32,000 bases of DNA from Bacteroidota bacterium (GCA_947479755.1 CANKAM010000009.1:36464-68463); one strand, 5' to 3'. Shown: positions 2,709 to 22,248, numbered from the stretch's first letter. Made by a program: numbers and translations. The notes: a model not told the origin generated them from the sequence alone.

Positions 2709-4856
2709 TTAAGCTACTGCCTTTTCTGTTTTCTCTTCGTAAAATTTCTTGCCTGTTTTTGCCATCTCTTCCAACAATGCAGGAGGATTAAAACGCGCTC
2801 CGTAAGCAGTTGCCAATGTTTTACAATCTTCTACAAACTGACGCACACCTATCATATCAATGTATGAGAAGATACCGCCAGTGTAAGGAGGGAAACCCCA
2901 GCCGAGGATAGAACCGATATCACCATCACGCGGTGATGTCAATACATTTTCTTCCAGACATTTCACGGCATTCAATGCCTGATAATGCAGCAAACGCTTT
3001 TTCAAAAGCTCAACATCAGGTTGCTCTTTTGCTAAAGGAAAGTATTCTGCCAATCCCGACCAAAGATGTTTTTTACCTCCGTCTGTAGGGTATTCATAAA
3101 AACCTTTTCTTGCTTTTTTGCCGGGGCGATTAAGTGTTTCCATAAACAAACGACCCACTTTTGCCTCAGCTCCTTCATTTACTTTTCCTAAATCTTTCTC
3201 TGTTTGTTTATTGATTTTATACATCAATTCAATGCTCACCTCATCCGCAACAGCAAGCGGACCAACCGGCATGCCTGCTGCTTTTCCTGCGTTTTCAATT
3301 AAAGCAGGAGCAATTCCTTCCTGCAACATATTCAGACCTTCTGCAATGTAGGTAGAGAAAATACGTGAAGTATAAAATGCTCTTCCGTCATTCACCACAA
3401 TAGGTGTTTTCTTAATTCGTTTCACATAATCAATTGCCATCGCAATCGCGTATGGTGAAGTTTTCTTTCCAAGAATAATTTCAACCAGTTGCATTTTATC
3501 AACAGGTGAAAAGAAATGGATACCGATAAAATTTTCCGGACGAACAGATGCTTCTGCCAATCCTGTGATAGGCAATGTAGAAGTATTGGAAGCATACACT
3601 GCAGTTGGCGAAAGCACCGCTTCTGTTTCTTTGGTTACACTTGCTTTCAGTGCACGGTCTTCAAAAACAGCTTCAATGATCAGCTCGCTGCCTTCAACTG
3701 CTTTAGGGTCTGCGGTTGTTACAATCCGTGCCAGAATTTCATCCGCTTTTTCTTTGCTCATGTGACCTTTGCTGACTTTTTCATTCAACAACTTCAACGA
3801 ATAGGCTTTTCCTTTTTCAGCATCTTCAATAGAACGATCCTTCAGAACAACATTCAATCCTGCAACTGCTGAAACATAAGCTATGCCTGCTCCCATCATT
3901 CCCGCGCCTAATACTCCCACTTTAGTAAGTGTATTTGCAGGAACATCTTTTGGTCGTGCTGCACCGCTGTTGGCTGCATTCATGGTAAAGAACAAGGTGC
4001 GTATCATATTCTTCGCCACCTGCGACATTGCACATTGCGTAAAATAACGCATCTCTACTTTCAATGCTCTGTCAAAATCCAGTTGCAAGCCTTCGTAAAC
4101 CGAATTCATAATGGCTGTAGGAGCCGGATAATTACCGAATGTTTTCTTTTGTAACAGTGCGCTTCCTGCCATAAATACACGCACTCCTGTTGGTGTCTGC
4201 ACACCGCCACCGGGAATTTTAAATCCTTTATCATCCCATGGTTGAACTTTTTTCCCAACTGTTCTTATCCACTCAACAGCAGCGGGAATTAATTCTTCTT
4301 TTGTAGCAACTAATTTATTCACCAGACCTTTTTCAAGCGCCTGTTCAGGACGTAATTTTTTTCCTTCCAGCAAAAGCGGCAAAGCATTTTCAATACCAAT
4401 CAGGCGGGGCAAACGCTGCGTTCCTCCTGCACCGGGAAGCAATCCTAATAATACTTCGGGTAATCCGATTTGTATTTTTGCATCATTAACCGCAATACGG
4501 AAATGAGAAGCCAGACAAAGCTCAAAACCACCACCTAATGCAGTTCCGTTGATAGCTGCAACTACAGGCTTTCCGCAGGTTTCCATTTTGCGGTAGAGCT
4601 TATGAAGCACCCCGGATTTCTCCATTACCTGTTCCGGTGTTTTCACAGCAGCAATCATTTTTAGATCTGCACCGGCAATAAATTCTTTTTTATCGGATGT
4701 AACAATGATACCTTTCACGTTCGCATCTTTCACGGCCTTATCAAACGCTTCATCAAAAGCAGCAATTGATTCCTGATTAAGCACATTCATCGTTGAGTTT
4801 TTCATGTCAAAGCTGATGAGGGCAATGCTGTCTTCGAGTAGGGTATAGTTTATCAT
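2709..4856 (-). CDS. Bifunctional enoyl-CoA hydratase / 3-hydroxyacyl-CoA dehydrogenase (FadB/FadJ-like)
   Basis: N-terminal crotonase fold (FIAGADL, AAINGTALGGGFEL). Central NAD-binding loop VGVLGAGMMGAGIA and 3HCDH domains. The ORF track starts at a GTG at 4877; the ATG at 4856 (MINYTLLEDSIALISFDM) looks more plausible. Confidence 0.9.
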   Translation of the reverse strand: MINYTLLEDSIALISFDMKNSTMNVLNQESIAAFDEAFDKAVKDANVKGIIVTSDKKEFIAGADLKMIAAVKTPEQVMEKSGVLHKLYRKMETCGKPVVAAINGTALGGGFELCLASHFRIAVNDAKIQIGLPEVLLGLLPGAGGTQRLPRLIGIENALPLLLEGKKLRPEQALEKGLVNKLVATKEELIPAAVEWIRTVGKKVQPWDDKGFKIPGGGVQTPTGVRVFMAGSALLQKKTFGNYPAPTAIMNSVYEGLQLDFDRALKVEMRYFTQCAMSQVAKNMIRTLFFTMNAANSGAARPKDVPANTLTKVGVLGAGMMGAGIAYVSAVAGLNVVLKDRSIEDAEKGKAYSLKLLNEKVSKGHMSKEKADEILARIVTTADPKAVEGSELIIEAVFEDRALKASVTKETEAVLSPTAVYASNTSTLPITGLAEASVRPENFIGIHFFSPVDKMQLVEIILGKKTSPYAIAMAIDYVKRIKKTPIVVNDGRAFYTSRIFSTYIAEGLNMLQEGIAPALIENAGKAAGMPVGPLAVADEVSIELMYKINKQTEKDLGKVNEGAEAKVGRLFMETLNRPGKKARKGFYEYPTDGGKKHLWSGLAEYFPLAKEQPDVELLKKRLLHYQALNAVKCLEENVLTSPRDGDIGSILGWGFPPYTGGIFSYIDMIGVRQFVEDCKTLATAYGARFNPPALLEEMAKTGKKFYEEKTEKAVA

Positions 4857-6038: not shown

Positions 6039-6068
6039 TTTCTAAGGGCTTGCAAAGATAAGATTTAT

Positions 6069-6087
6069 GGCATATAGTTTATATGCC
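6069..6087 (-). terminator. AT-rich hairpin downstream of the three-gene operon; possible weak terminator
   Basis: GGCATATA-gtt-TATATGCC is an 8-bp perfect stem with a 3-nt loop, about 50 nt past the stop at 6138. On the minus strand it is followed by a T-containing AT-rich tract (ATAAATCTTATCTTT). Confidence 0.3.
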
Positions 6088-6137
6088 TAAAACACAAGAT
6101 TCAAAGAAGGAAACAGAGGACTAAAGGAAAAATTTAT

Positions 6138-6656
6138 CTACACCGCCTCCGCTTCCTTCAACTTCGCATTGGCAACATTCACTGCAAAGTCAAAGAATAT
6201 CTTCACCGCTTTGGTAAATTTAAATTGTCCTTCGGCACGGAACAATACATTCTTACGATGCCATGTGCTGATGAAATCTTCAAAATTAGCTACCGAGGTT
6301 TTTTCCAATACTTCACATTTAGATGATTGTCTCAGCATCTGTTCTGTTTCGGCCATGTCAAAAACACCCACTTCAATGGCATCACGGAAATTCTTTCCGC
6401 TGTAGTCCAGCTCGCGGCAAAGCAAGGCAAGAAACAACACAAAATCGCGGGTACGTTTTTCCGTTCCTTCGGTGGAAGTGAGGTAAGCAATTTCGGAATC
6501 AATCACCAACTCATAACCGTAGCTCTGGGTAAAGAATTCGCGATATTCCTCTTCCTGCAACTTCAGCGAAACGAAGGTGGGGTTAGGATAGATTACAAAA
6601 CGCCCGTCAACAAGAGCGCTTACAATTTCACGGTGTTCACTTGGATAGCTTTGCAT
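6138..6656 (-). CDS. Small acidic third subunit of the SMC-like operon; possible MukE/MksE/JetB-type (kite-like) protein, function unproven
   Basis: 172-aa ORF whose ATG overlaps the upstream gene by 20 nt. It is acidic and has no catalytic motifs. Size and position fit the small accessory subunit of condensin-like or ABC-three-component systems. Confidence 0.55.
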   Translation of the reverse strand: MQSYPSEHREIVSALVDGRFVIYPNPTFVSLKLQEEEYREFFTQSYGYELVIDSEIAYLTSTEGTEKRTRDFVLFLALLCRELDYSGKNFRDAIEVGVFDMAETEQMLRQSSKCEVLEKTSVANFEDFISTWHRKNVLFRAEGQFKFTKAVKIFFDFAVNVANAKLKEAEAV

Positions 6657-7869
6657 AAACTTTAATTTTTGGCATTAATAAGGTGGCATCGGCCAGTTTT
6701 ATTTCGTAACGCTTTTCGTCTTTATATTCTATTACCAGGTCTTCGTCCAGCAACATGTTAGAGAGCGTAAAAAATTTAGACAGGGTAATATTTTCGGTCT
6801 GTTCTTCCAGCGAAGTCAGGCACCATTTGTAAAAATCTTTTACGCCATCGTCTTTCAGCAATTGCTCTTTAAAGAAAGCGGCATCGGGCAGCCACTCTAT
6901 ATCTTCATCACTTTCATTGAAAAGAATTTCGGGCGTGAGGTAACTAAACTGGTCAATATAAAATTCAGCTTCAGCAGCAAATGCCTTGGAGGTAACGCTT
7001 GATTTTGTTCTGCGCACTATGTGCGGAAGTGCAGCAACGTATGCTTTAGGATCATCAATGTTCTCCACGAAATGATAAAAGCCGTTGAGAATAATAGAAT
7101 CACTTTTGATACGCTCCAGCAGCGGCAATAATTCACGAGTAAGTTTGCTCAGCGTTTTATCTAATTCCGATTTTGCATTTACCGCGCAGGCATACAGTTT
7201 TTCGAACTCCAGTTTCAACTCGTAGTTATCCGAAAGCAAACGTCTTTCATTGGAATACTGCTGCAATTGAATAATCACATTCACAATGGAATCAGCACGT
7301 TCTTTATCCAAAATCCCATTGAGCGGAATAATGTATTCGTCAATCCAGAAGTTAGCACGTTGTATGCGTGTGGAGAAGGCAGAATGATTTCCAACATTAA
7401 CTTTCAATGCTTCGGTATCGCGCAGCAGGCGTTGCGTTTGTCCTTCAATATCACTCAGGAAATCTTCAATTACATTAATAATTTCCTGAGCAAGTAATAC
7501 AACACGAAAACCGGTTGTCTCCGTTTTCAATGCCGTGAAATGATTGAAAACTGCCTGATACCTGTTTTTTAATGTTTCGGGTAAATTCAAAACAAAATCG
7601 TTGAACAGATATTCCAGAAAAGGAATGTAGTTCCGGTTGAGTTTGTATTCGCCCGTTGAAAGTTGTCGGCAGAATTTTACTTCTGAGGTAAGGCGGTAAA
7701 GGGAAATCTTGCTTTCGTTCTTTGCATTGTAGTCATGAAGCAGACGCATGAACTTGTCTGCATCAATCATGAAATGCGGCTTGCCCGCAGCGAATGCGCT
7801 GTGCACAAACTCATAATGCGTATTCAAAAAACGCAGAATTTCTTTACCGGATAGATTTAAGTTGCTCAT
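6637..7869 (-). CDS. All-helical middle subunit of the SMC-like operon; possible kleisin/MukF/JetA-like or ABC-3C middle component, function unproven
   Basis: 410-aa ORF starting 3 nt after the ATPase stop. It looks helix-rich, and I recognise no nuclease, ATPase or transmembrane motif. Confidence 0.55.
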   Translation of the reverse strand: MSNLNLSGKEILRFLNTHYEFVHSAFAAGKPHFMIDADKFMRLLHDYNAKNESKISLYRLTSEVKFCRQLSTGEYKLNRNYIPFLEYLFNDFVLNLPETLKNRYQAVFNHFTALKTETTGFRVVLLAQEIINVIEDFLSDIEGQTQRLLRDTEALKVNVGNHSAFSTRIQRANFWIDEYIIPLNGILDKERADSIVNVIIQLQQYSNERRLLSDNYELKLEFEKLYACAVNAKSELDKTLSKLTRELLPLLERIKSDSIILNGFYHFVENIDDPKAYVAALPHIVRRTKSSVTSKAFAAEAEFYIDQFSYLTPEILFNESDEDIEWLPDAAFFKEQLLKDDGVKDFYKWCLTSLEEQTENITLSKFFTLSNMLLDEDLVIEYKDEKRYEIKLADATLLMPKIKVYAKLSK

Positions 7870-7872
7870 GGT

Positions 7873-10602
7873 TTAGTTCGCGTTCCTGTAAGTAACGGGG
7901 AATGATTGCAACTCGCCAAAAGTAATTTTAGGTTTACGGGCTCCTTTATCTTTTGCCTGTGCCAGCGGCTCTTTCACCAGATAATACTTCTGAATGCCTT
8001 CTACTTTACGTGGTGCAGCAAAGATCGGAACAAAGTTGTGGTCGATGCAAAAACGCACCAGTTGCTTCACGTTCTTTTGTCCGATTGCATCCAGCTCATC
8101 TACATAAATCACAATTTTGTTTTCAGGATCACTGTGAACTAAATCTTTCAGAATGTTCAGGAAGAGATACAATTTCAGAACAATGTTAGTTCCGCGCGAT
8201 TGCACCTGTTTAGACAAATCAATTTCTTCGCTTTCGCCTGTAACCTTTGTGATCTCAACTTTAATGGTAAACAAATCGGTGATGTCAACAGGCTTGCCTT
8301 TGCTGTCGGTTAATTGTTTTTCCAAAGCTGCTTTGCTTTCGCTGTAACCGTTGTCAAAATCAATTCCTCCCGTAAATTTCAAACGGGAGATTTTTTCAAG
8401 GTCTTGAATCATTTCTTCGTTCTCTACAATTTTCACACGCACACTCTGAATATTCGATACCGGATATTCAGCAAGCTTTGCGTTGTAGCTTTTATAGATA
8501 AACGTTTTAAAATCGTTGAACTGCGTAAGGAATGAATGGGTAGGGTTTCCAATCTCGTAAGAAAGCGTATCCAGCAGATTGCTGATAACCTTGTCCATCT
8601 GCGGAATATTGCTGATCTCCTCTTCTACCTCCGTAACAAACTCTCGTATATCCTGAATGTCTTTGTCCAGCTTTTTATTGATAGCATCTTTCAACTCTTT
8701 GCGTTGCTCGCGTGTTGCCCTGAAACTATCATACACACGATAGAAGCGGTCGTAGATTTTATCAAACGGCTCGTTTACTGTTTCGTCTGTTTGCAGAATA
8801 TCGTTCTTGGCAACAATGTGTTCGTATTGCTCGCGGTATTTTGAAAGATTGGCATGCAGCCTGTTCAGTTCAAGTTTACGTGAAGCCAATGTATCTTTCT
8901 CTTTTGTTATCTCCGCATCTTTCGCATCAATCTTGCGCTGAATATCACTCAGTGTTTTTCTCAGTTTGCTGTTTACCAATGCTTCGTTTTCTTTTTTAGC
9001 TGCAACCAACGAAGGTTTATCGTTAATCTTCTTAATCAGCTTTGCTGTATCAGAGATTGACTGAGCAAGTTTTTCAACCTGTTGCTGCAAGGTGCTGCGG
9101 TTTTTTATGGCCTCTAACTGAATGCTTTTTTCAGCAAGCTCTTTCTTCTTTGTTTTTACTTCATCCTGTAGTTGCTTAACCGTAGGAGGATGCTTCAGTT
9201 CAATTCCCTTCACATCAATTTTTCCATCAAAGAACGAAAGCGGTAAATCTGCTTTGGTAATTTTTTTCTTGATGTGTGACTTACTCAGAAAAGCAACATC
9301 ACTGCTCAGGTAAGTATAAACTTTGCTGATTACATCAGGCTTTGAGGAGATATTCTGATAAAGCAGGTTATCAAAATCCTTGATATTTTTTTGTTGCTGT
9401 TCAATTTCGTCATTCAGTTTTTTGATAGCGCCTTCTACTTCCTGCAACGTAAATTTACTACGGTCGAGTTGCATGATCTGTGCTTCAATATTAATGCGCT
9501 GACGGTTTTCTTCTTCATACTTCGCCATGATTCCCTGAAACATCAGGTTGTCTTCCGTAGGCTCAAAGTCTGCCACTTCAACTAACTGTTTATTTATTTC
9601 TTCAATGGCGTTGGTGGCGTTTGAAATCTGATTGTTCAGATTTGCTTTTTCGGTAATCAAATGGTCGCGCTGGTGTTTCAGCGTGTATTCAATTTTATTT
9701 TCCAGTTCACGGATAGACAATGAAAGCGGACTTTCAGAACCTGTCTTTTCCCACAGTTCCTTTTCAATGGCGTTAAAATGCAACACAAAGGTGTGCTTCA
9801 GTTTTGCCAAAATATGTTCTTCGGTTGAAAATTTATCGTTCAGCAATTTCAGCTTTTCAAAATCCTGTTTTACTGCCGAAAGATTATCCAGGTGATGTTT
9901 CTTTTTCTCGAACTCATTAATTTTCTCAAAGCTTGAACTGGTAAAAACATTCAGTGAAAGATCTTGTTTGTTATCAGCAATCAAAAGTGCATTCTTAAAA
10001 GACTTCTCGCTGATATCGCTGGTTTTAATAAGGTGGCGATAAATCTCTGTAAAGCTGTTAGAGAACGAACGGCCTTTGCGTTTAACTTCGCGCTTAATCC
10101 AAACCACAGGATTTTTTGTGCGGTCTGAGTTGTAAACCGTGTTGTAAAGGTCTTCTCCTTTCAGCAATACAGGCGGGTCAAGCGGATTTTGTTTGGTAAG
10201 TTCTTCCAGAATTTTGTCCCAACGTTTTACCTTGGACGAGTCAGCCGATTTCTGAATAAAGTTTTCTTCTTTAAATGCTCCGGGCAAACGGTAATACTCA
10301 ATTGTGTTTTCAGGAGTTGCCTTTGCCAGTATGCAATAATATTCGGTTTTAAAGATTTCAAAAATGATGAAACTGTGCAGACTTGTTCCGTCAAAATAGT
10401 GTTTCATGGAGTCCGCTAACTTTCGGTTATCCTCAAAACGCATCTGGTCTTTATCGGTGATATAAAGAAAATTGAGCGTGTTCAGGAACGAGCTTTTACC
10501 CACGTTGTTTTCCGCAGTCATCTGAATGCTGTGGTTCTGACCAATTTGAATTGCTGCCTTGGCATACAATTCTGAGTTTATAACTATGATTCTGTTTAGC
10601 AT
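7873..10602 (-). CDS. SMC/MukB/Rad50-like ABC ATPase with a long coiled-coil insertion
   Basis: 909 aa. Walker A-like AENNVGKSS is at aa 30-38 (nt 10489-10515). Walker B IVIYVDELD is at aa 830-838 (nt 8089-8115). A signature-like QSRGT lies about 30 aa upstream of Walker B. About 450-500 aa of K/E/Q/L-rich heptad-like sequence separates the two half-heads. Confidence 0.8.
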   Translation of the reverse strand: MLNRIIVINSELYAKAAIQIGQNHSIQMTAENNVGKSSFLNTLNFLYITDKDQMRFEDNRKLADSMKHYFDGTSLHSFIIFEIFKTEYYCILAKATPENTIEYYRLPGAFKEENFIQKSADSSKVKRWDKILEELTKQNPLDPPVLLKGEDLYNTVYNSDRTKNPVVWIKREVKRKGRSFSNSFTEIYRHLIKTSDISEKSFKNALLIADNKQDLSLNVFTSSSFEKINEFEKKKHHLDNLSAVKQDFEKLKLLNDKFSTEEHILAKLKHTFVLHFNAIEKELWEKTGSESPLSLSIRELENKIEYTLKHQRDHLITEKANLNNQISNATNAIEEINKQLVEVADFEPTEDNLMFQGIMAKYEEENRQRINIEAQIMQLDRSKFTLQEVEGAIKKLNDEIEQQQKNIKDFDNLLYQNISSKPDVISKVYTYLSSDVAFLSKSHIKKKITKADLPLSFFDGKIDVKGIELKHPPTVKQLQDEVKTKKKELAEKSIQLEAIKNRSTLQQQVEKLAQSISDTAKLIKKINDKPSLVAAKKENEALVNSKLRKTLSDIQRKIDAKDAEITKEKDTLASRKLELNRLHANLSKYREQYEHIVAKNDILQTDETVNEPFDKIYDRFYRVYDSFRATREQRKELKDAINKKLDKDIQDIREFVTEVEEEISNIPQMDKVISNLLDTLSYEIGNPTHSFLTQFNDFKTFIYKSYNAKLAEYPVSNIQSVRVKIVENEEMIQDLEKISRLKFTGGIDFDNGYSESKAALEKQLTDSKGKPVDITDLFTIKVEITKVTGESEEIDLSKQVQSRGTNIVLKLYLFLNILKDLVHSDPENKIVIYVDELDAIGQKNVKQLVRFCIDHNFVPIFAAPRKVEGIQKYYLVKEPLAQAKDKGARKPKITFGELQSFPVTYRNAN

Positions 10603-10661
10603 GGTACGTAGTATCTATAAAATGCAAAAAAATGATTTTTGAGTATAACTTGCAATTATGT

Positions 10662-10681
10662 TTATCAACCAATGTTGATAA
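10662..10681. promoter_or_regulatory. Candidate operator palindrome in the divergent intergenic region
   Basis: TTATCAAC-caat-GTTGATAA has perfect 8-bp inverted arms. It lies 60-80 bp upstream of the ATPase ATG (10602) and about 85 bp upstream of the epimerase start (10764). Confidence 0.3.
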
Positions 10682-10763
10682 CATTTTTGGGATAATTTGT
10701 TTTTCCGTTACTGCGGAACTATGTCAAGATGAATTCTGAATACTTTAGCACAAATTTTATTCG

Positions 10764-12222: not shown

Positions 12223-13587
12223 TTGGATGAAGAATATACATCTATGATTTACCTTGGTGTTTTTTCAGCATATGAAAATAAAAACTACAGCCTTATTTAT
12301 GAACTGGAAAAACTTTATGAACCGGTTAAAAAGAATTTAGACGGGCTCAATGAATGGCTGATTATTTATGACATCGCACGAACCTACGACATTGATAAAA
12401 GCAATCAGGAGAAAGCAGAACATTGGGTTAAAGCATTAGAAAAATGGCCTGCTGTAGATAGTGACGGCAAAAAACGAAATGAGGGTCCGTTTAATTATAT
12501 GGTAAAAAAAATAAACGGAATGAGCACAACTGACAATAGCTTAATGCTGCGCGCTGCTTACGCCTTATATGCTGTTGAAAAATATGCGGAGGCTGATAAA
12601 TGGTTTGGCAATTATGCAAAGTCAGCAAGTTCACCAACACTTGTTGCAGGCTGGGATTATTCAGAATCAGCTATGAAAGAACCCGACAAAACCGATGCAA
12701 GAAATGCGGTGAATATTATTGAACAACATACTTCAGGTTTTTCGGAATATGAATGGGAACGATTACAAAAAGTTTATGAGTTTATTGGCGATATCGCCAA
12801 AGTTCAGGAAATAAAAAACAAAATTGCCGAAGCCCGAAGAAAAGCAGAAGAAGACCGCAGATTGCAGGCAAAGCGTGATGAAGAAGAACGCAAACGCAGA
12901 GAAAGGGCTGAACGGAAAGCAAACGCACGCGAAAATTTTTCAGTTGCTGTTGCCACCAATCCGTTCATGTACATTTGGAATGATTATCCGGTAAGTCTTG
13001 ATATCCGTTTCGGAAGAATTGTAAATGAATTCAGAGTGAACTTTTCAAACACCACTGATAAAGGAGACAAATATCGTTTCGGGCAATATAAATTAGGTAG
13101 CGGTTCAAATAATGCTTCTAATCCATATAAATATAAAGGGATGGAATATTCTTATACGCTGAAAATTCTTGCAAGAAAAATGCAAACAAAAAGTGTTGGC
13201 AGAAGAAAACAAATAATGGCTGGTTATGTAGGATTTCAGCCGCGCTATGCAAAATATAATTTCGCATCAGAGCCATATACATTTACAAACTCTACCACCA
13301 TGATTCCTGAGACATTTAATACTATCAGTGCTTCTGCAACACGCTACGAATTTTGTATTCTTGGAGGATTCTTAGGTGATAATCTTGGAGGATTTTTTCA
13401 TATTGATTATTACTTTGGTGTGGGTGTAGGATACCGCAAACTGGATATTTCATCAACAGATGCCACATTCAATTACAGCAATTACAGCTTTGACGATAAT
13501 GGCGACAAGCGATTTGACCCCGACAGATGGAACAAAATATATGTGCCTGTTAGGTTTGGTTTCAGGATTGGGATAAATCTTTTGTGA
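12223..13587 (+). CDS. TPR-like / charged-helix / C-terminal beta-barrel-like protein; continuation of the preceding ORF
   Basis: The frame is open from 12124, immediately after the TAG at 12121-12123. The protein has a helical repeat region, a KRE-rich segment (EARRKAEEDRRLQAKRDEEERKRRERAERK) and a C-terminal alternating-hydrophobic region ending VPVRFGFRIGINLL. Confidence 0.6.
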   Translation: MDEEYTSMIYLGVFSAYENKNYSLIYELEKLYEPVKKNLDGLNEWLIIYDIARTYDIDKSNQEKAEHWVKALEKWPAVDSDGKKRNEGPFNYMVKKINGMSTTDNSLMLRAAYALYAVEKYAEADKWFGNYAKSASSPTLVAGWDYSESAMKEPDKTDARNAVNIIEQHTSGFSEYEWERLQKVYEFIGDIAKVQEIKNKIAEARRKAEEDRRLQAKRDEEERKRRERAERKANARENFSVAVATNPFMYIWNDYPVSLDIRFGRIVNEFRVNFSNTTDKGDKYRFGQYKLGSGSNNASNPYKYKGMEYSYTLKILARKMQTKSVGRRKQIMAGYVGFQPRYAKYNFASEPYTFTNSTTMIPETFNTISASATRYEFCILGGFLGDNLGGFFHIDYYFGVGVGYRKLDISSTDATFNYSNYSFDDNGDKRFDPDRWNKIYVPVRFGFRIGINLL

Positions 13588-13650
13588 TTTTCGTAATTGC
13601 CTGAAAATTGTATATTTGATACATTATTAATCCCCTAAAAAACCAAAACC

Positions 13651-13908
13651 ATGTTTTTCGCAGTTAAACACACCATCAGCAATCCGGGAGAATTCTGGAC
13701 ACGCGCACAGGCAGCATTGCCAAATCTTCCTGAAGGAATAAAAATTCACAGCGTATTACCTAATGCAGCAGGAGATGATGCCGTTTGTGTATGGGAAGCT
13801 AATGATCTTGAACATATAACTTCTTTTCTGGAAACTAACACAGGCGATGTTTCACACAACCACTATATTGTGGTGAATGATGCAACCGCAATGGGCTTAC
13901 CTAAGTAA
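13651..13908 (+). CDS. Small hypothetical protein
   Basis: 85-aa ORF with an ATG start in an otherwise empty intergenic slot. Its 3' end overlaps the convergent ABC-F gene by 8 nt. No motif recognised. Confidence 0.5.
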   Translation: MFFAVKHTISNPGEFWTRAQAALPNLPEGIKIHSVLPNAAGDDAVCVWEANDLEHITSFLETNTGDVSHNHYIVVNDATAMGLPK

Positions 13909-15868
13909 GGTTTCCGACACTTAGTTGCAGTTTTTCGAGCGCGTTTTGGTGTCTGTCCCAGACTTCCATTTCGCGCTCTAAATTTTTCTTGAGTTCGTTG
14001 TAACGTTCAAAAACAGTAGCATCTTTCAGTGCTTCGCTATAAAATTCAGGGTCAAGCAGATTGTCGTCCATTTCTTTTATAAGTTGCTCCAAACGCTCAA
14101 TTTCTTTTTCGTTTTTCTGAACTGCTGCTTGCGCATGCTTCAGTTCTTTTTCCAGCTTTTTCTTTTCCTCCTGTTCGTGCTTTGATTCAAACTTTTCCTT
14201 CTCTTTTTCTTTCTTATCAGCACCATTGGCAGCGGCTTTTACTTCCAACTGTGCAAGGTTCTGAATTTTGCGAGAAGCAAGGAATGCCTGCAGATCACCA
14301 ATATGTGTTTTGATATTTCCGTTGCGGAATTCATACACTTTATCGGTTAGTCCCTGTAAAAAATCACGGTCGTGCGAAACAACAATGAGCGTTCCGTCAT
14401 ACTTCATCAGTGCACTCTTCAGCATTTCTTTCGAGCGCATATCCAAGTGGTTGGTGGGCTCGTCCATAATAAGCAGGTTGTAAGGCTGCAACAACAATTT
14501 ACAAAGCGCAAGACGGTTTTTTTCTCCACCCGAAAGCACTTTTACTTTTTTGTCAACCGCATCGCCTCCAAACAAAAACGAACCTAACAAACTGCGCACG
14601 TTTTTGCGTACATCACCTTCTGCCACATCGTCAATGGTTTGAAAAACTGTTTTTTCTCCATCCAGAATTTCAGCCTGATTTTGTGCGAAATAACCAATCT
14701 TCACATTGTAGCCTATGGTCATCTTACCTTCATACGTTTCAACACCTGCAATAATTTTTGAAAGGGTTGACTTTCCTTCACCGTTTTTACCTACAAAAGC
14801 AATGCGCTCTTCGCGCTCAATCATAAAATCCACTTTGCTGAAAATGGTTTTTTCTCCATACCGCTTGGCAATGTTCTCGGCTTCCACCAAAACTTTTCCT
14901 GAACGGGGTGCAGGCGGAAATTTGAATCGCAGCGTAGCATTATCTTCTTCGTCCACTTCAATGCGGTCTATCTTATCCAGCTTCTTAATTAAGCTCTGCG
15001 CCATGGAAGCCTTGCTGGCTTTTGCTCGGAATTTATTGATGAGCATCTCGGTGTGCTCAATATATTTTTCCTGATTGGCAAAGGCAGCCTGCTGCTGCTC
15101 CCTGCGTTCTGCGCGCAATTGCACGTATTTTGAATAGTTGGCTTTGTAATCGTAAATCTTTCCAAGCGAAATTTCAATTGTACGTGTGGTAATATTATCA
15201 AGGAAAGCCCTGTCGTGCGATACCAGCACCACTGCTCCGTAGTAGTTTTTCAAAAAATCCTCAAGCCATTGAATGGACTCAATATCCAAGTGATTGGTAG
15301 GCTCATCCAGCAACATAACGCTTGGTTTCTGCAACAGAATTTTTGCCAGTTCAATACGCATGCGCCATCCACCGCTGAACTCATCAGTAAGGCGGGTTAA
15401 ATCGCTGCGCTCAAATCCCAAACCGAACAATACCAGTTCAATATCACTCTGCATGGTGTAGCCACCAATCAGGTTATAGCGCTCGTTGGCATCGTTCATC
15501 TTCACAATAAGGTCGGAATAGGAATCGCTTTCGTAATCGGTGCGAATGCCCAACTGCTCATTATAATGCTCAATTTTTTTCTCCAGATCTTTGGCTTCAA
15601 CGAAGGCCGTTTCGGTTTCATCGAAAACGGTCTTGCCCAATCTCAGGTGCATTTCCTGAGGAAGATAACCCAAGGTGCAATCGTTCTGAATAGCCACTTC
15701 TCCCTCGGTGGGATTCTGCTCCTTGGCCAGTATTTTCAACATGGTTGATTTTCCTGCACCGTTCTTCCCAGTAAGCCCAATGCGGTCGCGGGAGTTTACA
15801 AGAAAAGAAACATCATCGAAAAGGTCGCTGCCACCAAATTGAACCGAAAGCCTGTTAACTGAAATCAT
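13901..15868 (-). CDS. ABC-F family ATPase with two ABC domains and no transmembrane domain
   Basis: Two Walker A loops (GKNGAGKST, GKNGEGKST), two signatures (FSGGWRMR, LSGGEKNR) and two Walker B motifs (MLLDEPTNHLD, LIMDEPTNHLD). There is a K/E-rich C-terminal coiled coil. The ATG at 15868 (MISVNRLSVQFGG) is preferred over the TTG at 15889. Confidence 0.92.
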   Translation of the reverse strand: MISVNRLSVQFGGSDLFDDVSFLVNSRDRIGLTGKNGAGKSTMLKILAKEQNPTEGEVAIQNDCTLGYLPQEMHLRLGKTVFDETETAFVEAKDLEKKIEHYNEQLGIRTDYESDSYSDLIVKMNDANERYNLIGGYTMQSDIELVLFGLGFERSDLTRLTDEFSGGWRMRIELAKILLQKPSVMLLDEPTNHLDIESIQWLEDFLKNYYGAVVLVSHDRAFLDNITTRTIEISLGKIYDYKANYSKYVQLRAERREQQQAAFANQEKYIEHTEMLINKFRAKASKASMAQSLIKKLDKIDRIEVDEEDNATLRFKFPPAPRSGKVLVEAENIAKRYGEKTIFSKVDFMIEREERIAFVGKNGEGKSTLSKIIAGVETYEGKMTIGYNVKIGYFAQNQAEILDGEKTVFQTIDDVAEGDVRKNVRSLLGSFLFGGDAVDKKVKVLSGGEKNRLALCKLLLQPYNLLIMDEPTNHLDMRSKEMLKSALMKYDGTLIVVSHDRDFLQGLTDKVYEFRNGNIKTHIGDLQAFLASRKIQNLAQLEVKAAANGADKKEKEKEKFESKHEQEEKKKLEKELKHAQAAVQKNEKEIERLEQLIKEMDDNLLDPEFYSEALKDATVFERYNELKKNLEREMEVWDRHQNALEKLQLSVGNLT

Positions 15869-15970
15869 TTTTTTTACGAAAGGGCGCAAAAGTAATCATT
15901 TGACCTATCCACAGAGCTATTATTCATCGCCAAAAATTTATACTTTATCTATTAAATAATCTTGCTTGTA

Positions 15971-15978
15971 TAATTTTG
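15971..15978 (+). promoter_or_regulatory. Possible Bacteroidota -7 promoter box (TAnnTTTG) for the arsR-like gene
   Basis: TAATTTTG matches TAnnTTTG. It sits in a very AT-rich 170-bp divergent intergenic region, about 80 bp upstream of the ATG at 16059. I could not identify a clear -33 TTTG partner. Confidence 0.25.
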
Positions 15979-16058
15979 TAACATATTAACTTTATATTTA
16001 TAGTATTGTATTGAAAATTTAATTATTAATAATTTACACTAACTTAACACCACACACC

Positions 16059-16343
16059 ATGCAAATCAATGAAAAAACCATCGCAGCAGTGCTGCGTGCA
16101 GGAGGTCATCCCATCCGCGTGCAGATTCTGGAATTATTAAACTTAGAAGGCGAAGTATCTGTAAATGATGTTGTCAAAAAAATCGATTCAGAACAATCGC
16201 TTACCTCACACCACCTTATGCTGCTTACTAAAGCAGGATATATTAAAGGGAAAAGAAGCGGGAAATTTATTTATTACTCTATTGCCTCAAGGGAGCTTTA
16301 TGGTTTACTTGGGGTTGTAAAGAAGTATTTAAAAGATCAATAA
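16059..16343 (+). CDS. ArsR/SmtB-family winged-helix transcriptional regulator
   Basis: 94 aa. HPIRVQILELL...VSVNDVVKKIDSEQSLTSHHLMLLTKAGYI is the typical ArsR HTH pattern. Confidence 0.8.
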   Translation: MQINEKTIAAVLRAGGHPIRVQILELLNLEGEVSVNDVVKKIDSEQSLTSHHLMLLTKAGYIKGKRSGKFIYYSIASRELYGLLGVVKKYLKDQ

Positions 16344-16382
16344 AATTAATCCGGAAAATACTTAGCAGTATAATCCGGAAAA

Positions 16383-16838
16383 ATGATGAAAAGACTGAAT
16401 AAAATAGTCTTCATTGATGATGATATTCCTACCAATGAGTATCATAAGTTTATTGTCAAAAAGGCAAATGTAGCCCGTGATTCGCTTTTCTTCACAACTG
16501 CAGAAGACGCACTGGTTTACCTTTCTGACATAAAAACAAAATACGATTTTCCCAACCTTATTTTTATTGACATAAACATGCCCGGCATGAGCGGGCATGA
16601 ATTTATTGATGCGGTACGCTCACTTCCCAACTATAATGAAAGCCGCACGGAGCTGGCATATTTAGCAACAACCATGACCAATCAGGATGTTTCTGCTTAT
16701 GCAGCCAATGGCATGAAATATTATTATTTCAAAACCATAACGGCCGTTAATCTTTGCAAAATAGTTACCGAAATTTTCAACATTGAAACGGTTAACGAAC
16801 CAATTGCTGTTACTGACCAGCGCGCACGTAGAATATGA
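16383..16838 (+). CDS. Single-domain response regulator (receiver only)
   Basis: 151 aa. Acidic pocket FIDDD, phospho-acceptor context LIFIDINMPGMSG. No output domain. Confidence 0.8.
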   Translation: MMKRLNKIVFIDDDIPTNEYHKFIVKKANVARDSLFFTTAEDALVYLSDIKTKYDFPNLIFIDINMPGMSGHEFIDAVRSLPNYNESRTELAYLATTMTNQDVSAYAANGMKYYYFKTITAVNLCKIVTEIFNIETVNEPIAVTDQRARRI

Positions 16839-17251
16839 AGCAAAAGCTGAAACTGATTTTATTAGTTGATGATTTTGAAGGTGCTAATTTTCTTCATGAG
16901 AAAGTAATACGTGAATCAGGATGTGCAGAAAAGGTGCATATAGAAACAAGTGGCGATAAAGCACTACAGTTTTTAAGAACAGAAGAGAAAGGCAGCTATC
17001 CCCATCCCGATATTATTTTTCTTGATCTGAATATGCCCGGCATGAGTGGCTGGGAATTTTTAGAAGAATATAAAACCCTGACTCGCGAACAGCGTTGGGG
17101 AACACTGATTGTTATACTTACCACATCGCGCAACCCCGATGATGAGGCAAGAGCAAGAACAAAACACCCAAAGACTGTTTTTATGAATAAACCGCTCTTG
17201 CGCAAACCGCTGGAAGAAATTCTGCGCGAATATTTTTCAGACAATTACTGA
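16835..17251 (+). CDS. Single-domain response regulator (receiver only)
   Basis: 138 aa with LLVDD, IIFLDLNMPGMSGWEF, LTTS and NKP. ATGA start/stop overlap with the preceding receiver gene. Confidence 0.85.
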   Translation: MKQKLKLILLVDDFEGANFLHEKVIRESGCAEKVHIETSGDKALQFLRTEEKGSYPHPDIIFLDLNMPGMSGWEFLEEYKTLTREQRWGTLIVILTTSRNPDDEARARTKHPKTVFMNKPLLRKPLEEILREYFSDNY

Positions 17252-17276
17252 TTTTATTTCCGATGTTTGGTGTCGG

Positions 17277-19619
17277 ATGCAAACCACACAAAATAAAATA
17301 GCAGGTTTTTTAGGTTTAGCTATTACCGCAGTCGGTTTTCTTGTACTCCTGGGTTGGCAATTTGATATTGAATTTCTGAAACGCCCCATTCCGGGGCTTG
17401 TTGCTATGAACCCGGTAACGGCACTCGGATTTTTTTTATCAGGAGTTGCTATTTTTCTTGTTACAAAGAATAGTACAGAAAAGCATACATTTAAATGGCT
17501 AAGTATAGTTTTAGCAGCAACTGTTATCCTTATTGGTGTTTTAAAACTTTCTGATATTATTTTTTCTACAACTATTGGAGAAGATGAATGGTTCTTTAAT
17601 ACTAAAAATTTTAAAGAAAAATTACGCGGCATTTCAAGCCGCATTGCACAAACTACAGCGCTGAATTTTATTTTGCTTGGCAGTTCAATTATTTTAAGTG
17701 GAAGCAAAAAAGCAATTTTAAACTCAATTGCAAATTACCTGGCACTGGGAACTTTTCTCATAGCACTTTTTTCTACTCTGGGCTACGTTTATTTTATTCC
17801 CGAATTTATAGAACTACTTACAAAAAATCCTATGGCTGTGCATACGGCAATATGCTTTCTGATTGCTGCCTTGGCTGTAATGTTCTACAATCACAACCAG
17901 GGATTTATGCTCACCTTTTCGGGTTCTGACCCGGGTGGGCTCCTAGCCCGTGTATTGGTTCCGGGAATTGTACTCTTCCCGTTTTTTCTTGGAATAGGAC
18001 TTCTTTACATTGTCCACCATTACAATGTAAGTACTGAATTGCTGGTGGGCTTTGGGGTAATTAATGTTACGCTTGTGTTCTTTTTTATTACCTGGTATGT
18101 AGCTGCTCAGTTGAATAAGGTCAATGCCAAACGCAATGAGGTTGAAAAAGAATTATCACTCTCGCACGAACGGTTTTTTACGTTTTTCGAATCAAGTCCG
18201 GTTCCAACCAATATTATCAGGGTAAAAGACGGGCACTACCTTCATGCAAATACTGCGTTTTTAAAATTATTTTCTCTTACCCGAGAACAGGTAATCGGAA
18301 AAACTTCTGCAGAGTTTAATATTATAGACGCTAAAAAACGAGGGGCCCTTCTTGAATATGTAAAAGAAAAAAATTACAACATGCAGGATGTAGAAGCTAA
18401 GCTGATAAGCTCAACCGGTAAAAAAATTGACATACTTACCTCAACACTACTAATTGAACTAGATGGTGAGCCTCACATGCTCACTACACTTATTGATATA
18501 ACCGAACGAAAATCCATTGAAGAAGAGATCCGCAAAAGCAGAAAGAGTCTTAACGATGCGCAAAAATTATCAAAAACAGGCAGTTGGGAGTTTAACCTCA
18601 AAACCGGTGCGTTGTTTTGGTCTGATGAGCTCTATCACATTTTTGAGGTAGAGGAAACACCTGCTGAAAAACTTTTTGAAGTTTGCCGGAAAAAAATTCA
18701 TCCCGATGATATTGCAAATCTTGATGATGCAATAAACCTGGCAAACGAAGCGGGGGTAGCAGCTGTTTATGAACACAGAGTGATTATGGGTGACGGCAGT
18801 ATCAAGCATCTGTTTGGACTTGGCGAAATAATAAAGGACGAAGATGGAAAACCTCTTTGGTTAAGAGGAACAACTCAGGATATTACTGAGCGAAAAGAAT
18901 TTGAAGAAAAGCTGCGGCAAAATAACATACAATTAGACCTCAAAAATAAAGAACTGGAACAATTTGCATTTGTGGCCTCGCATGATTTGCAGGAACCTCT
19001 GCGCACTATAAGCAGTTTTACCGAACTACTTACTGATGAATATGCAGCAAAGTTTGACAACAACGCAAATACCTATGTCCGCTTTATTTCTCAATCGGCA
19101 ATGCGCATGCGCGATTTAATAACTGCCTTACTCGACTACTCACGACTGGGCAATAAAATTATTTTACAACAAAGCGATTGCAATGATATTCTGAAACATG
19201 CAATGGAAAATTTACACGTTTCCATAAAAGAAAGCGAGGCAGTTATAATAGCTGAAAATCTTCCTGTGCTGAAAGCGTACCCGATTGAGATGGAACTGTT
19301 ATTTCAGAATTTGATTGGCAATGCTATTAAATTCAGGAAAAAAGAAGTGATACCTGAAATTAATATTAAAGCCAAAAAACGCGAGCATGAATGGGAATTT
19401 TCATTTGCAGATAATGGAATTGGAATAGACCAGAAACATTTTGAAAAAATATTTCTTCTTTTCCAGCGTCTGCATTCGAGCGATAATTATAAAGGTTCGG
19501 GCATTGGCTTATCGCACTGCAAAAAAATTGTGGAACTGCACAACGGGAGAATCTGGGTTGAATCAAAAGCAGGTGAAGGAAGTGTTTTTTATTTTACAAT
19601 AGCAGTGCAGGCTGAGTAG
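17277..19619 (+). CDS. Membrane sensor histidine kinase: multi-TM N-terminal domain, two PAS domains, HisKA, HATPase_c
   Basis: 780 aa. About 8 hydrophobic segments in the first 290 aa. PAS-like regions, H-box FVASHDLQEPLRT, and N/G boxes (NLIGNAIKF, DNGIGI, GSGIGLS). Confidence 0.9.
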   Translation: MQTTQNKIAGFLGLAITAVGFLVLLGWQFDIEFLKRPIPGLVAMNPVTALGFFLSGVAIFLVTKNSTEKHTFKWLSIVLAATVILIGVLKLSDIIFSTTIGEDEWFFNTKNFKEKLRGISSRIAQTTALNFILLGSSIILSGSKKAILNSIANYLALGTFLIALFSTLGYVYFIPEFIELLTKNPMAVHTAICFLIAALAVMFYNHNQGFMLTFSGSDPGGLLARVLVPGIVLFPFFLGIGLLYIVHHYNVSTELLVGFGVINVTLVFFFITWYVAAQLNKVNAKRNEVEKELSLSHERFFTFFESSPVPTNIIRVKDGHYLHANTAFLKLFSLTREQVIGKTSAEFNIIDAKKRGALLEYVKEKNYNMQDVEAKLISSTGKKIDILTSTLLIELDGEPHMLTTLIDITERKSIEEEIRKSRKSLNDAQKLSKTGSWEFNLKTGALFWSDELYHIFEVEETPAEKLFEVCRKKIHPDDIANLDDAINLANEAGVAAVYEHRVIMGDGSIKHLFGLGEIIKDEDGKPLWLRGTTQDITERKEFEEKLRQNNIQLDLKNKELEQFAFVASHDLQEPLRTISSFTELLTDEYAAKFDNNANTYVRFISQSAMRMRDLITALLDYSRLGNKIILQQSDCNDILKHAMENLHVSIKESEAVIIAENLPVLKAYPIEMELLFQNLIGNAIKFRKKEVIPEINIKAKKREHEWEFSFADNGIGIDQKHFEKIFLLFQRLHSSDNYKGSGIGLSHCKKIVELHNGRIWVESKAGEGSVFYFTIAVQAE

Positions 19620-19700: not shown

Positions 19701-20654
19701 TTACAAGGGTGTCAACACTGCATTAAGGGTTATGGTTTGCGCTTCGGCTATTTCAATTTCCACTTCATAGTCTGCATACCCATCGGCAGTAACTTTTATT
19801 TTAGTTGTGCCTACAAATTTTGTTTTTAAAGTATAATCACCGTTTGCATCGCTAAGTGTAAGGTCATCACTTTCAAGAACAAGAATGGTTGCGTTGGCAA
19901 CAGCCACAGGTAATCCCGGGCCGGGAGGAGGAACGGTGCCTGTTATTTTTCCGCTGATGGTTGATTCTGCACCCACGGTAATATAAATAACACCCCACTC
20001 ACGTGCATTGTTGCGCATGCTGTCGGCTTCTTCTTCGTTGTAAAATGTTTCTACTTCGTCCCACACTTTTCTTATCACTTTGTCGGTTTCGTCAAACAAG
20101 GCTTCCAGTGTTTCTTCGGCTGTATCTAAGGTATCTTTCAAATTACTTTGCGAAGTAAATAAACCTACAAAAGCAGATACCTCGGTTTGCACCTCCGGAG
20201 CTGTGGGGTTAGTCATAGGTGCGCCTCCTACAGTGATGCGCTGCGCATCACCGGTTACAATTTTATTTCCCCAGCTTATTATATCTTCTTCGGTTAACAT
20301 TTCGGGTAAGGCATCTGAGCCCACCTCTAATTTATAAAGTGCGCGGTGGGCAGCATTGTAAATGCCGCGTGCCACACCCAGATTAAACACTTGAATAAAA
20401 TGCGAGGTAAACATTTTGCTGCGCCCTTTAGCTACATTTTTCAGTGGGGTATTGCCACTGTAAGTTGATTGCTTTAAACCTAAATCATTATAGGCAGTTT
20501 CATAGTTTGCCACCATGTTATCAAGGCGGGTGGTGGTGGCAACTGACAGTATGTTGCCTGCAGGCGGAAGACTGTCTTTTTTGTTTTTGGCAAAACGAAT
20601 AGCCTTGTAACGCGATTCGATAGTACGGGGTAATTTACGGGTAATGCTTGTCAT
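19701..20654 (-). CDS. Hypothetical protein with a C-terminal carboxypeptidase-regulatory-like beta-sandwich; N-terminal ~230 aa unrecognised
   Basis: The ORF track starts at a TTG at 20717; the ATG at 20654 (MTSITRKLPRT...) is more plausible. C-terminal pattern: ISGKITG...ATILVLESDDLTLSDANGDYTLKT...KIKVTADGYADYEVEIEI...TLNAVL. No signal peptide. Confidence 0.6.
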   Translation of the reverse strand: MTSITRKLPRTIESRYKAIRFAKNKKDSLPPAGNILSVATTTRLDNMVANYETAYNDLGLKQSTYSGNTPLKNVAKGRSKMFTSHFIQVFNLGVARGIYNAAHRALYKLEVGSDALPEMLTEEDIISWGNKIVTGDAQRITVGGAPMTNPTAPEVQTEVSAFVGLFTSQSNLKDTLDTAEETLEALFDETDKVIRKVWDEVETFYNEEEADSMRNNAREWGVIYITVGAESTISGKITGTVPPPGPGLPVAVANATILVLESDDLTLSDANGDYTLKTKFVGTTKIKVTADGYADYEVEIEIAEAQTITLNAVLTPL

Positions 20655-20754
20655 GGTTTTTTTTGGTTTTAAAAATTTGTGGGGCAAAGTAAAACCCGGC
20701 AAGGGGGTATGAGTCAATAAACGGTTTCAAAACTTTTTAACAACAGCAGGCTTT

Positions 20755-21585: not shown

Positions 21586-22248
21586 TTATTTCGCGTAATG
21601 TGCAATCACATCACTCTCAAAAATCAGTTTTCCGGATTCGGGATTTTTGGCAAGCTGCACCATGCAGCGGGCTACGGTTTGGGCTTCTATGGCTTTGTAT
21701 TTTTTTAGCGGACCCGCAAACAAAAAACCGGTAGCCTGCATAAAAACTTTGCCTATGCTCTCTCCTATTCGTGTTTCTTTTCTGTCGCCCAGCAACATGG
21801 AAGGGCGCAGGATACAAAAACTATCAAAATTTAAAGCAGCAATGGCGTTTTCAATATCACCCTTGGTGCGCAGATAAAAATTACCCGAGTGTGCATCGGC
21901 TCCTAATGACGATACCAGCATAAATTGTTTTGCTCCCTGCGCCTTGGCGGCTTTGGCCAATTCAAGGCAATAGGTATAATCTACTTTACGGAAATTCTCC
22001 TGCGAGCCTGCAGTTTTTATGGTAGTGCCTAAACAACAAAATACCACATCAGCAGTAAGCCGTTGCGAAAACTGGTTCAGCTCATCAAAGTCAACAACAA
22101 TTTCCGAAACTTTTTCGCGGTTTATGGCAAGTGGTTTACGGGTAATTAATTTTACTCTGCTGAAATCGTTGTCATCTGCCAGCAACTGAAGAACATGACT
22201 GCCGATTAATCCGCTGGCACCTGCAATAAGAGCAGTTTTTCCGCTCAT
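21586..22248 (-). CDS. NAD(P)H-binding Rossmann-fold oxidoreductase (atypical SDR / HTATIP2-like)
   Basis: 220 aa with N-terminal ALIAGASGLIGSHVLQLL (GxxGxxG). ATGA start/stop overlap with the upstream protease gene. Confidence 0.75.
   Translation of the reverse strand: MSGKTALIAGASGLIGSHVLQLLADDNDFSRVKLITRKPLAINREKVSEIVVDFDELNQFSQRLTADVVFCCLGTTIKTAGSQENFRKVDYTYCLELAKAAKAQGAKQFMLVSSLGADAHSGNFYLRTKGDIENAIAALNFDSFCILRPSMLLGDRKETRIGESIGKVFMQATGFLFAGPLKKYKAIEAQTVARCMVQLAKNPESGKLIFESDVIAHYAK

Follow-up and report, generated by a model that had tools for sequence, protein, structure and literature searches.

We analysed a 32,000-nt stretch of a Bacteroidota bacterium genome (GCA_947479755.1, CANKAM010000009.1:36464-68463), referred to here as the window, in which three minus-strand genes at positions 6138-10602 code for an SMC-like ATPase together with a kleisin and a KITE subunit. 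This operon is probably a nuclease-less, MksBEF-like derivative of a branch of the Wadjet group with the gene order SMC ATPase, nuclease, kleisin, KITE (B-G-F-E), in which the nuclease gene was precisely lost and the core was kept in a non-cleaving form. An earlier annotation made without database searches (the sequence-only reading) had described a minimal condensin-like module; it had the class right, and what it missed was a Toprim or HNH nuclease gene lost at the 3-nt junction between the ATPase and kleisin genes.

The ATPase gene (7873-10602, minus strand) encodes 909 aa, the kleisin gene (6637-7869, minus strand) 410 aa, and the KITE gene (6138-6656, minus strand) 172 aa. The open reading frame (ORF) map bore out the tight packing that had been described, with a 3-nt gap at 7870-7872 from the ATPase stop codon to the kleisin ATG and a 20-nt overlap at 6637-6656. 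The ATPase motifs were also found where they had been placed, Walker A AENNVGKSS at residues 30-38, the signature-like QVQSRGTN at 799-806, and Walker B KIVIYVDELD at 829-838, and all are conserved family-wide. The smallest protein had been called acidic, in agreement with its computed isoelectric point (pI) of 5.0; that of the kleisin is 5.4.

We found that the operon encodes an SMC–kleisin–KITE complex of the MukBEF/MksBEF/Wadjet class, so that the class proposed by the sequence-only reading, and the kleisin and KITE relationships on which it depended, hold in Pfam, AlphaFold2 (AF2), and Foldseek comparisons. The KITE subunit, of the MukE/JetB/MksE type, belongs to Pfam family PF21980, MksE (score 69.4 bits where the cutoff is 27, E 5.9e-19, with positions 2-162 of the 163-position model aligned), which was present in 120 of the 120 KITE homologues listed; the JetB models of PADLOC reached only E 0.014. 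In the AF2 model of the ATPase (predicted local distance difference test, pLDDT, 65.7 overall and 85-90 in the coiled coils), two helical arms of ~190 aa (~223-412 and ~475-664) lie around a short middle region, with matching breaks near 343-352 and 599-612, which agrees with the coiled coil previously read between the two halves of the head and gives the split ABC head and long antiparallel coiled coil of a MukB/JetC-class SMC protein. The top Foldseek matches to this model were MukB (9gm6_A and 9gm9_A, E 3e-10), and JetC (9qxu, 9qxx, 8q72, 9qe0, and 8dk2, with ~1e-7 for the first three) ranked above Smc5/6 and Rad50. Sequence-level support was weak for the ATPase, with a PADLOC JetC2 match of E 2e-6 chiefly over the coiled coil; PF12128/DUF3584 is present in some of its homologues.

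The kleisin model (pLDDT 75.7) runs from a winged helix at the N-terminus through a long bundle of helices and a disordered linker (residues ~284-324) to a winged-helix domain at the C-terminus, and fold comparison identifies it as a MukF/JetA-type kleisin: six of its eight top Foldseek matches were MukF (9gm7_C at E 5e-6, 9gm7_D, 3euh, 3rpu, and 1t98) or JetA (9qe1_E), and a second JetA, 8dk2_A, was also among the matches with a probability of 0.23. The kleisin had no match in Pfam, PADLOC, NCBIfam, or PDB sequences, and its family is small, at 150 representatives (many of them fragments) after 50% clustering among 1.84 billion proteins. Its profile did reach P0444, a kleisin-position protein of a canonical-order operon, at E 2.8e-12 (hhalign 96.7%). 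Searched against PDB sequences, the profiles of the kleisin, ATPase, and KITE subunits and of the effector described below returned nothing, coiled-coil noise (the sole result for the ATPase), or a spurious YajQ/CAP-repeat match, so the link of these proteins to MukBEF and Wadjet comes from fold comparison, not from PDB sequence-profile searches. P0444 and another kleisin-position protein, P0476 (L029:295-1533 and L031:115-1422), came pre-labelled as PF28010 'MksB' despite their MksF position upstream of MksE and an SMC gene, and the name of that family seems at odds with standard naming. A literature search for DUF7281, PF21980, and PF28010 was without result.

It is vanishingly improbable that the operon is instead a Lamassu/ABC-3C-type or Rad50/SbcC/RecN-type system outside the Wadjet group. 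Weak matches over the coiled coil to LmuB models of PADLOC (E 0.013-0.16) and to Rad50 and SMC models of NCBIfam (E 1e-4 to 1e-6), together with one source that labels a homologue 'SbcCD ATPase subunit', point that way, but the ATPase is partnered by a kleisin of MukF/JetA fold and a KITE of the MksE family, both foreign to those systems, neither SbcD/Mre11 nor LmuA is present, and Foldseek puts MukB and JetC above Rad50. The NCBIfam Rad50 and SMC scores were far below their cutoffs, the window contains no SbcD/Mre11 partner, and the ATPase falls outside RecN, RecF, and SbcC. Kinship with ABC-3C systems, raised by the sequence-only reading, did not survive: ABC-3C is Lamassu (LmuABC, DdmABC), defined in a review, which combines the LmuB SMC-like ATPase with a small middle component, LmuC, has no kleisin or KITE, and has in LmuA a separate large effector, and the LmuB models are at noise level against the window ATPase. 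What Lamassu does share with the present family is an SMC-like ATPase with a swappable in-operon nuclease effector, which resembles the Toprim/HNH exchange described below.

Homologues of the three proteins, each at 56-70% identity, are spread over Bacteroidota, in Pedobacter, Mariniphaga, Flavisolibacter, Kordia, Zhouia, Tamlana, and metagenome-assembled genomes (MAGs) of Cyclobacteriaceae, Saprospiraceae, and Chitinophagaceae. Locus-tag spacing at NCBI hinted at an additional gene, and in the Pedobacter lithocola locus (L001) an ORF of 268 aa lies between the ATPase gene and the kleisin gene and overlaps both. Fetched loci were scored for this fourth gene with tblastn and hidden Markov models (HMMs). 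It was detected in 15 of 22 genome-scan loci, in addition to L001, the other seven being six loci of the three-gene clade and one (L017) too short to score, and in 39 of 40 metagenome loci of the close clade outside the window's own clade, the remaining one (L056) starting inside the kleisin gene and being unscorable. The fourth gene is thus present in every scorable relative at 49-70% identity (~55 loci). The 22 loci among 185,579 species genomes are a lower bound from exact peptide patterns that leave the deep clade described below unsampled; a universal core locus, which the sequence-only reading had named as a possible refutation, was rejected for the phylum on this count, and the family is sporadic across Bacteroidota. 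No relatives were found on viral contigs, and only four distant matches (at most 26% identity) were on plasmids.

The fourth gene encodes a JetD-like effector. Its invariant VENLDS (E144) and FPDYD (D187-x-D189) motifs form the Toprim E...DxD signature, and of 16 members searched with Pfam, every one matched DUF7281 (best E 2.4e-6) and 15 matched JetD_C (best E 4e-5), although each of these matches scored below the gathering threshold. A sister clade at ~35% identity instead carries an HNH effector: the position-2 genes of L073 (219-686), L074 (962-1459), and L076 (at the contig start) encode proteins of 155-165 aa whose first ~85 residues correspond to the N-terminal domain found in the Toprim effector (positions 1-83 of its HMM, 58-64 bits) and whose C-terminus matches PF01844 (31.1 bits, cutoff 21.4) and the ZorE-type HNH models of PADLOC (1e-8). 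In Wadjet-I, the N-terminal part of JetD links the nuclease to JetABC; by analogy, the N-terminal domain common to the Toprim and HNH effectors is probably a docking module. We found no description of an HNH effector for a Wadjet-group system in the literature consulted.

The order B-(G)-F-E was found in every locus of the Bacteroidota branch, with the B-to-G and F-to-E adjacencies kept, so that B-G-F-E is the canonical F-E-B-G with two gene pairs swapped. The four-gene relatives are defence-like in their sporadic distribution, and one lies in a defence island with DarT, BrxC/D-type, TerB_C, and helicase genes. At L033 (13522-15339) the kleisin is truncated by a phage-type integrase and the KITE gene is missing, with Y2 transposases and the reverse transcriptase of a group II intron around the locus, and at L051 (460-3191) a four-gene system has its ATPase split into two ORFs.

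The three-gene state of the window operon is a loss, not a gain, of the nuclease gene. Within the close branch (49-70% identity) only the window's lineage has the three-gene form, in loci at 92-99% identity (L005-L009, L014, L034, and L035) and at 80% (L027 and L028), and nuclease-bearing sister lineages stand at 63-70% identity to the three-gene operon. In neighbour-joining trees of concatenated ATPase, kleisin, and KITE sequences (1,442 columns), the window clade and its grouping with four-gene group 1 each had 100% bootstrap support, and the four-gene loci formed a monophyletic group without the window clade in 0 of 200 replicates. A kleisin and KITE tree rooted with canonical-order, Toprim-bearing outgroups placed the Toprim clade, which includes the window clade, with the HNH clade and left a deep three-gene clade outside both, with 100% at the nodes. 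By parsimony, this rooted topology calls for an effector-bearing ancestor, one replacement of Toprim by HNH, and two independent nuclease losses.

Comparison of junctions between three-gene and four-gene loci located the deletion scar of the effector gene at 7867-7886 (minus strand). Where the effector gene is present, its ATG overlaps the stop codon of the ATPase gene (AATGCAGAATAA) and its TGA overlaps the kleisin ATG (AAATGAGC); the window clade has these two ends fused (AATGCGAATTAAACCATGAGC in L005), with both flanking genes left intact. The junction of L005 and L007, ATG-CGA-ATT-AAA-CCA-TGA, is a five-codon relic of the effector ORF, whose ATG has mutated to ACG in the window. At the same junction L014 has a 160-nt AT-rich non-coding insertion (1846-2004) with no effector similarity, next to an ATPase that is 99% identical.

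The deep clade (~30% identity) consists of 35 loci (L079-L113), mostly from freshwater-lake metagenomes, together with L002-L004. These are always B-F-E, with a B-F spacer of 0-330 nt, and lie among housekeeping genes (yajC in 14 loci) without a conserved additional neighbour. The deep clade probably reflects another nuclease loss, older than that of the window clade; its spacers yielded no effector relic. Some of its loci have a conserved micro-ORF of ~33 aa (...LEEVR[VM][KR]Y[NH]LIEE) in the ATPase–kleisin spacer, at the position of the effector gene (L004:4726-4830, L002 ~8109-8213, L095 ~1400-1500, and L099 ~4070-4170), which could represent a small subunit, a relic, or a chance occurrence.

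Pairwise Nei-Gojobori estimates revealed that the three-gene operon is under very strong purifying selection, with a ratio of nonsynonymous to synonymous divergence (dN/dS) as low as that of tyrS or fadB. Within the clade the ratio was 0.013-0.072 at dS 0.28-0.94, and against the 80% clade (L027, dS ~2) that of the kleisin and KITE genes was 0.045-0.062, the ATPase being saturated. In the same genome pairs, tyrS, fadB, and mqn had values of 0.025-0.046, the adjacent epimerase gene 0.10-0.16, and the histidine kinase gene 0.10-0.22; four-gene systems had 0.03-0.23. One kleisin value, 1.77 for L018-L020, came from faulty coordinate extraction and was disregarded. The window clade branch is 1.23-1.33 times longer than those of the four-gene sisters in each subunit. 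Of 391 positions invariant among four-gene systems, nine changed in the window clade, all conservatively, and the ATPase motifs are unchanged. A decaying, non-functional remnant of a defence system is very improbable, and the selection data exclude it: deletion of the nuclease gene and the other kinds of decay seen in relatives speak for it, but at least six species representatives of the genome scan (L005-L009 and L014) have all three ORFs intact, as do L034, L035, L027, and L028, dN/dS is 0.013-0.07 at dS up to ~2, and the ATPase motifs and translational coupling have been kept.

The operon is also inherited vertically at its site, since its dS equals that of the adjacent epimerase gene and the adjacency is kept in all three-gene loci, including the 80% clade; it is a stable chromosomal locus within the window's lineage. 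Nucleotide identity is higher in the operon (87-91%) than in its flanks (70-78%), and a recent horizontal replacement was considered for that reason and rejected because the dS equals that of adjacent genes, lower dN explaining the gap. Foreign composition was rejected as well: the operon had looked AT-rich by eye, but its GC content of 0.402 compares with 0.401 both in the window as a whole and in the remainder, and its GC content at third codon positions (GC3) is inside the range of neighbouring genes. These properties bear on a second alternative, a non-nucleolytic defence or silencing complex that would rely on loop extrusion to recognise DNA that is foreign or in small circles and would compact, silence, or mis-segregate it in the manner of Smc5/6, which we regard as improbable. 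The Wadjet-like ancestry, the adjoining variable cargo hotspot, and the literature precedent of Smc5/6, which restricts extrachromosomal DNA without cleavage, are in its favour. Against such a putative complex, vertical inheritance, housekeeping-level constraint, and native composition are commoner for a core function than for a defence gene; decay and mobility occur in four-gene relatives (L033 disrupted, L051 with a split ATPase) and in none of the three-gene clade.

The hotspot lies downstream of the KITE gene, at the equivalent of window ~6039-6137, where sister genomes carry variable cargo: a Peptidase_S74 tail-fibre-like gene with a ParE toxin (L007:14460-18899), a reverse transcriptase with a PIF1/AAA_30 helicase (L008:14455-19200), or a Zeta toxin with a 1,597-aa protein of no assigned family (L009:14460-21700). 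In the window the hotspot is 'empty', with the mqn gene directly adjoining the KITE gene. The sequence-only reading had seen no nuclease here, and indeed tblastn and HMM searches found no homologue of the relatives' effector in the 32-kb window, nor did the HMM find one in the ~10 kb around the operon at eight other, related loci of the three-gene form, although the same HMM did find the 80-residue N-terminal domain in the HNH clade. The docking domain was likewise not found in the downstream cargo of L007, L008, and L009.

These searches weigh on a third alternative, that the operon still serves nucleolytic defence as a sensor working with a nuclease encoded in trans that docks through the common N-terminal domain. 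This we consider unlikely, if less so than silencing. The effector is modular, its Toprim and HNH versions having a common N-terminal domain, the corresponding part of the Wadjet-I JetD is a connector to JetABC, and nearly all family-invariant positions were kept after the loss, with strong selection on the sensor. Set against this, the window and the ~10 kb around eight related loci hold no effector homologue, the downstream cargo (ParE, reverse transcriptase, PIF1-type helicase, and Zeta toxin) varies between genomes and has no docking domain, and the nuclease-bearing relatives all keep their effector in the operon, overlapping its neighbours.

Several observations weigh against a nuclease-less, chromosome-organising derivative of the Wadjet group. 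TM-scores were low in both fold searches and the pLDDT of 65.7 gives the ATPase model modest confidence; the low TM-scores follow from elongated, flexible proteins, and the fold assignment thus depends on the consistency of the top matches. The trees were built by neighbour joining alone, and the assignment of the effector as JetD-like combines Pfam matches below threshold with motifs, no solved structure having been matched by sequence. The near-full retention of invariant surface positions also fits a complex that still docks an effector, and the hotspot with its toxin, reverse transcriptase, and helicase cargo leaves the locus in a defence-like neighbourhood. Finally, according to a review, JetABC without JetD has no known phenotype in the characterised Wadjet systems.

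On balance we favour the nuclease-less derivative. The operon belongs to a Bacteroidota-restricted branch that has the standard operon SMC, nuclease, kleisin, and KITE, with an effector composed of the ~85-aa N-terminal domain fused to a JetD-like Toprim or, in one sister clade, to HNH; an ancestor of the window's lineage excised the effector gene precisely, with the other three genes staying translationally coupled. By analogy with MukBEF and JetABC, an SMC dimer bridged by the kleisin, with KITE dimers, would load on DNA and perform ATP-driven DNA entrapment and loop extrusion. In four-gene ancestors, extrusion on a small circle presumably activated the docked Toprim or HNH nuclease. Without the nuclease there would be no cleavage, and the likeliest retained role, again by analogy, would be that of an accessory, MksBEF-like chromosome-organising condensin, for which the MksBEF of P. 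aeruginosa, which makes long-range cis contacts and helps segregation, offers a precedent. A non-cutting DNA-surveillance complex may be an alternative role; plasmid-cutting defence has probably gone.

Three types of Wadjet are recognised (JetABCD = MksBEFG = EptABCD, types I-III), all in the order jetABCD/mksFEBG. The four-gene form of the present family shares with them a MukB/JetC-class SMC, a MukF/JetA-fold kleisin, a KITE, and a JetD_C-related Toprim nuclease in a single translationally coupled operon, and its members are sporadic and sometimes found in defence islands or mobile contexts. It differs from them in its order (B-G-F-E rather than A-B-C-D/F-E-B-G), in its short SMC (~905-925 aa), its 172-aa KITE, and its 268-aa effector (MksG/JetD being ~290-450 aa by gene coordinates in the accessible part of a published census), and in the replacement of Toprim by HNH in one clade. 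An in-operon Toprim gene is present in the family and missing from the window operon. The Wadjet models of PADLOC left the kleisin and the effector undetected and barely detected the remaining subunits, and neither PADLOC nor NCBIfam provided an assignment that could be used.

In having an SMC, a kleisin, and a KITE without MksG/JetD, the window operon itself resembles the MksBEF of Pseudomonas aeruginosa, MukBEF, and the 'FEB' operons of the Buermann et al. 2025 census; nuclease-free complexes have been described before as MukBEF and "several other Wadjet group members". Its KITE belongs to the Pfam family named MksE, its coiled coils are short, and it is chromosomal and vertical within its lineage. 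It is unlike them in its order (B-F-E rather than F-E-B) and in its nuclease loss being recent and documented by sister lineages at 63-70% identity and a junction relic. The short ATPase had been thought atypical, which it is not, since MksB-type proteins have been described with shorter coiled coils and relatives measure 879-942 aa.

Further relatives in canonical order were found on the Pseudomonas megaplasmids pBASL58 (L114) and pMPPla107 (L116) and on Salinibacter ruber pSR76 (L115), with a short SMC of 879-942 aa that is homologous to that of the window (21% identity across 92% of the query), along with a KITE of MksE type and a kleisin-position protein. Toprim proteins of these plasmid operons match DUF7281 above threshold (36.7 and 29.4 bits against 27). 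They differ from the window operon in their F-E-B-G order, in being plasmid-borne, and in standing at ~20% identity, and all their genes are annotated as hypothetical. The Pseudomonas megaplasmids measure ~0.9-1 Mb and the Salinibacter plasmid 76 kb, and downstream of both Pseudomonas operons comes one further gene, encoding ~390-400 aa without an assigned function.

The census covered more than 250,000 genomes, and in its accessible part the operon orders are FEBG (609), GFEB (155), FEB (93), BEFG (11), and BEF (1), with zero entries for BFE or BGFE; neither Kordia, Zhouia, Tamlana, nor Pedobacter appears there. Its rule demanded consecutive B, F, and E genes, as far as that part states it, and would thus exclude B-G-F-E. 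The ATPase-first order that the sequence-only reading had noted is real and has counterparts elsewhere in the 11 BEFG entries, though B-(G)-F-E is unlisted. An incomplete literature search found no paper describing the B-G-F-E branch, which is apparently unclassified within the Wadjet group. Nuclease-free Wadjet-group complexes and ATPase-first operons are already known; what appear to be new are the B-G-F-E architecture, the swap of Toprim and HNH on a common N-terminal domain, and a well-resolved, recent nuclease loss followed by housekeeping-level constraint. Because the branch in its entirety appears to escape standard defence-system finders and a large census, the prevalence of the Wadjet group in Bacteroidota is probably underestimated.

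An open question for SMC complexes is whether the chromosome-organising MukBEF and MksBEF derived from plasmid-cutting Wadjet through nuclease loss. One review proposes such an origin, and another study judged common ancestry of MksBEF and MksBEFG unlikely. We tentatively suggest, as a possibility that falls somewhat short of even chances, that the family is an unrecognised, Bacteroidota-restricted fourth kind of Wadjet-group system (B-G-F-E with a docking Toprim or HNH effector) caught in transition from defence to condensin, with at least two independent nuclease losses (in the window clade and in the deep clade) and a core that gained or already had a nuclease-independent function. If so, a core fixed under housekeeping-level constraint implies a function independent of the nuclease, such as chromosome organisation. 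The family supplies closely related pairs (63-70% identity, separated by a clean deletion) in which a Wadjet sensor without its nuclease, and the re-addition of the nuclease, can be tested, and four-gene systems are available in the cultured hosts Zhouia amylolytica, Tamlana fucoidanivorans, Kordia aestuariivivens, and Pedobacter lithocola. That Toprim and HNH are exchanged behind a common N-terminal domain suggests a docking module that is portable among nucleases activated by SMC complexes.

Domain searches recovered the neighbours that had been read from the sequence, a radical SAM gene of the CofH/MqnC type and a gene of the MR_MLE epimerase type, and the 32-kb window is without a tRNA gene, in keeping with the lack of a tRNA boundary reported for the operon. 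The region between the ATPase gene and the divergent epimerase-type gene (10603-10763) presumably holds the operon promoter; sigma-70 sites were no commoner there than by chance in a scan whose model leaves out Bacteroidota promoters. Elsewhere in the window, a protein with a Por secretion (type IX secretion system, T9SS) C-terminal sorting domain (22245-23891) and a CarboxypepD_reg-domain protein (19701-20717) fit a Bacteroidota host, and lake and microbial-mat samples are the source of the closest genomes, which are MAGs that bear the label Bacteroidia or 'Chitinophaga pinensis'. Divergence from L005 is mosaic across 12223-19619: dS is 0.26-0.72 in most other genes, 0.03 in an ABC-F gene (13901-15889), 0.09 in the histidine kinase gene (17277-19619), and 1.25 in an ORF without a Pfam match (12223-13587) whose amino-acid identity is just 75%. 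This pattern suggests recent recombination tracts and one fast-evolving gene.

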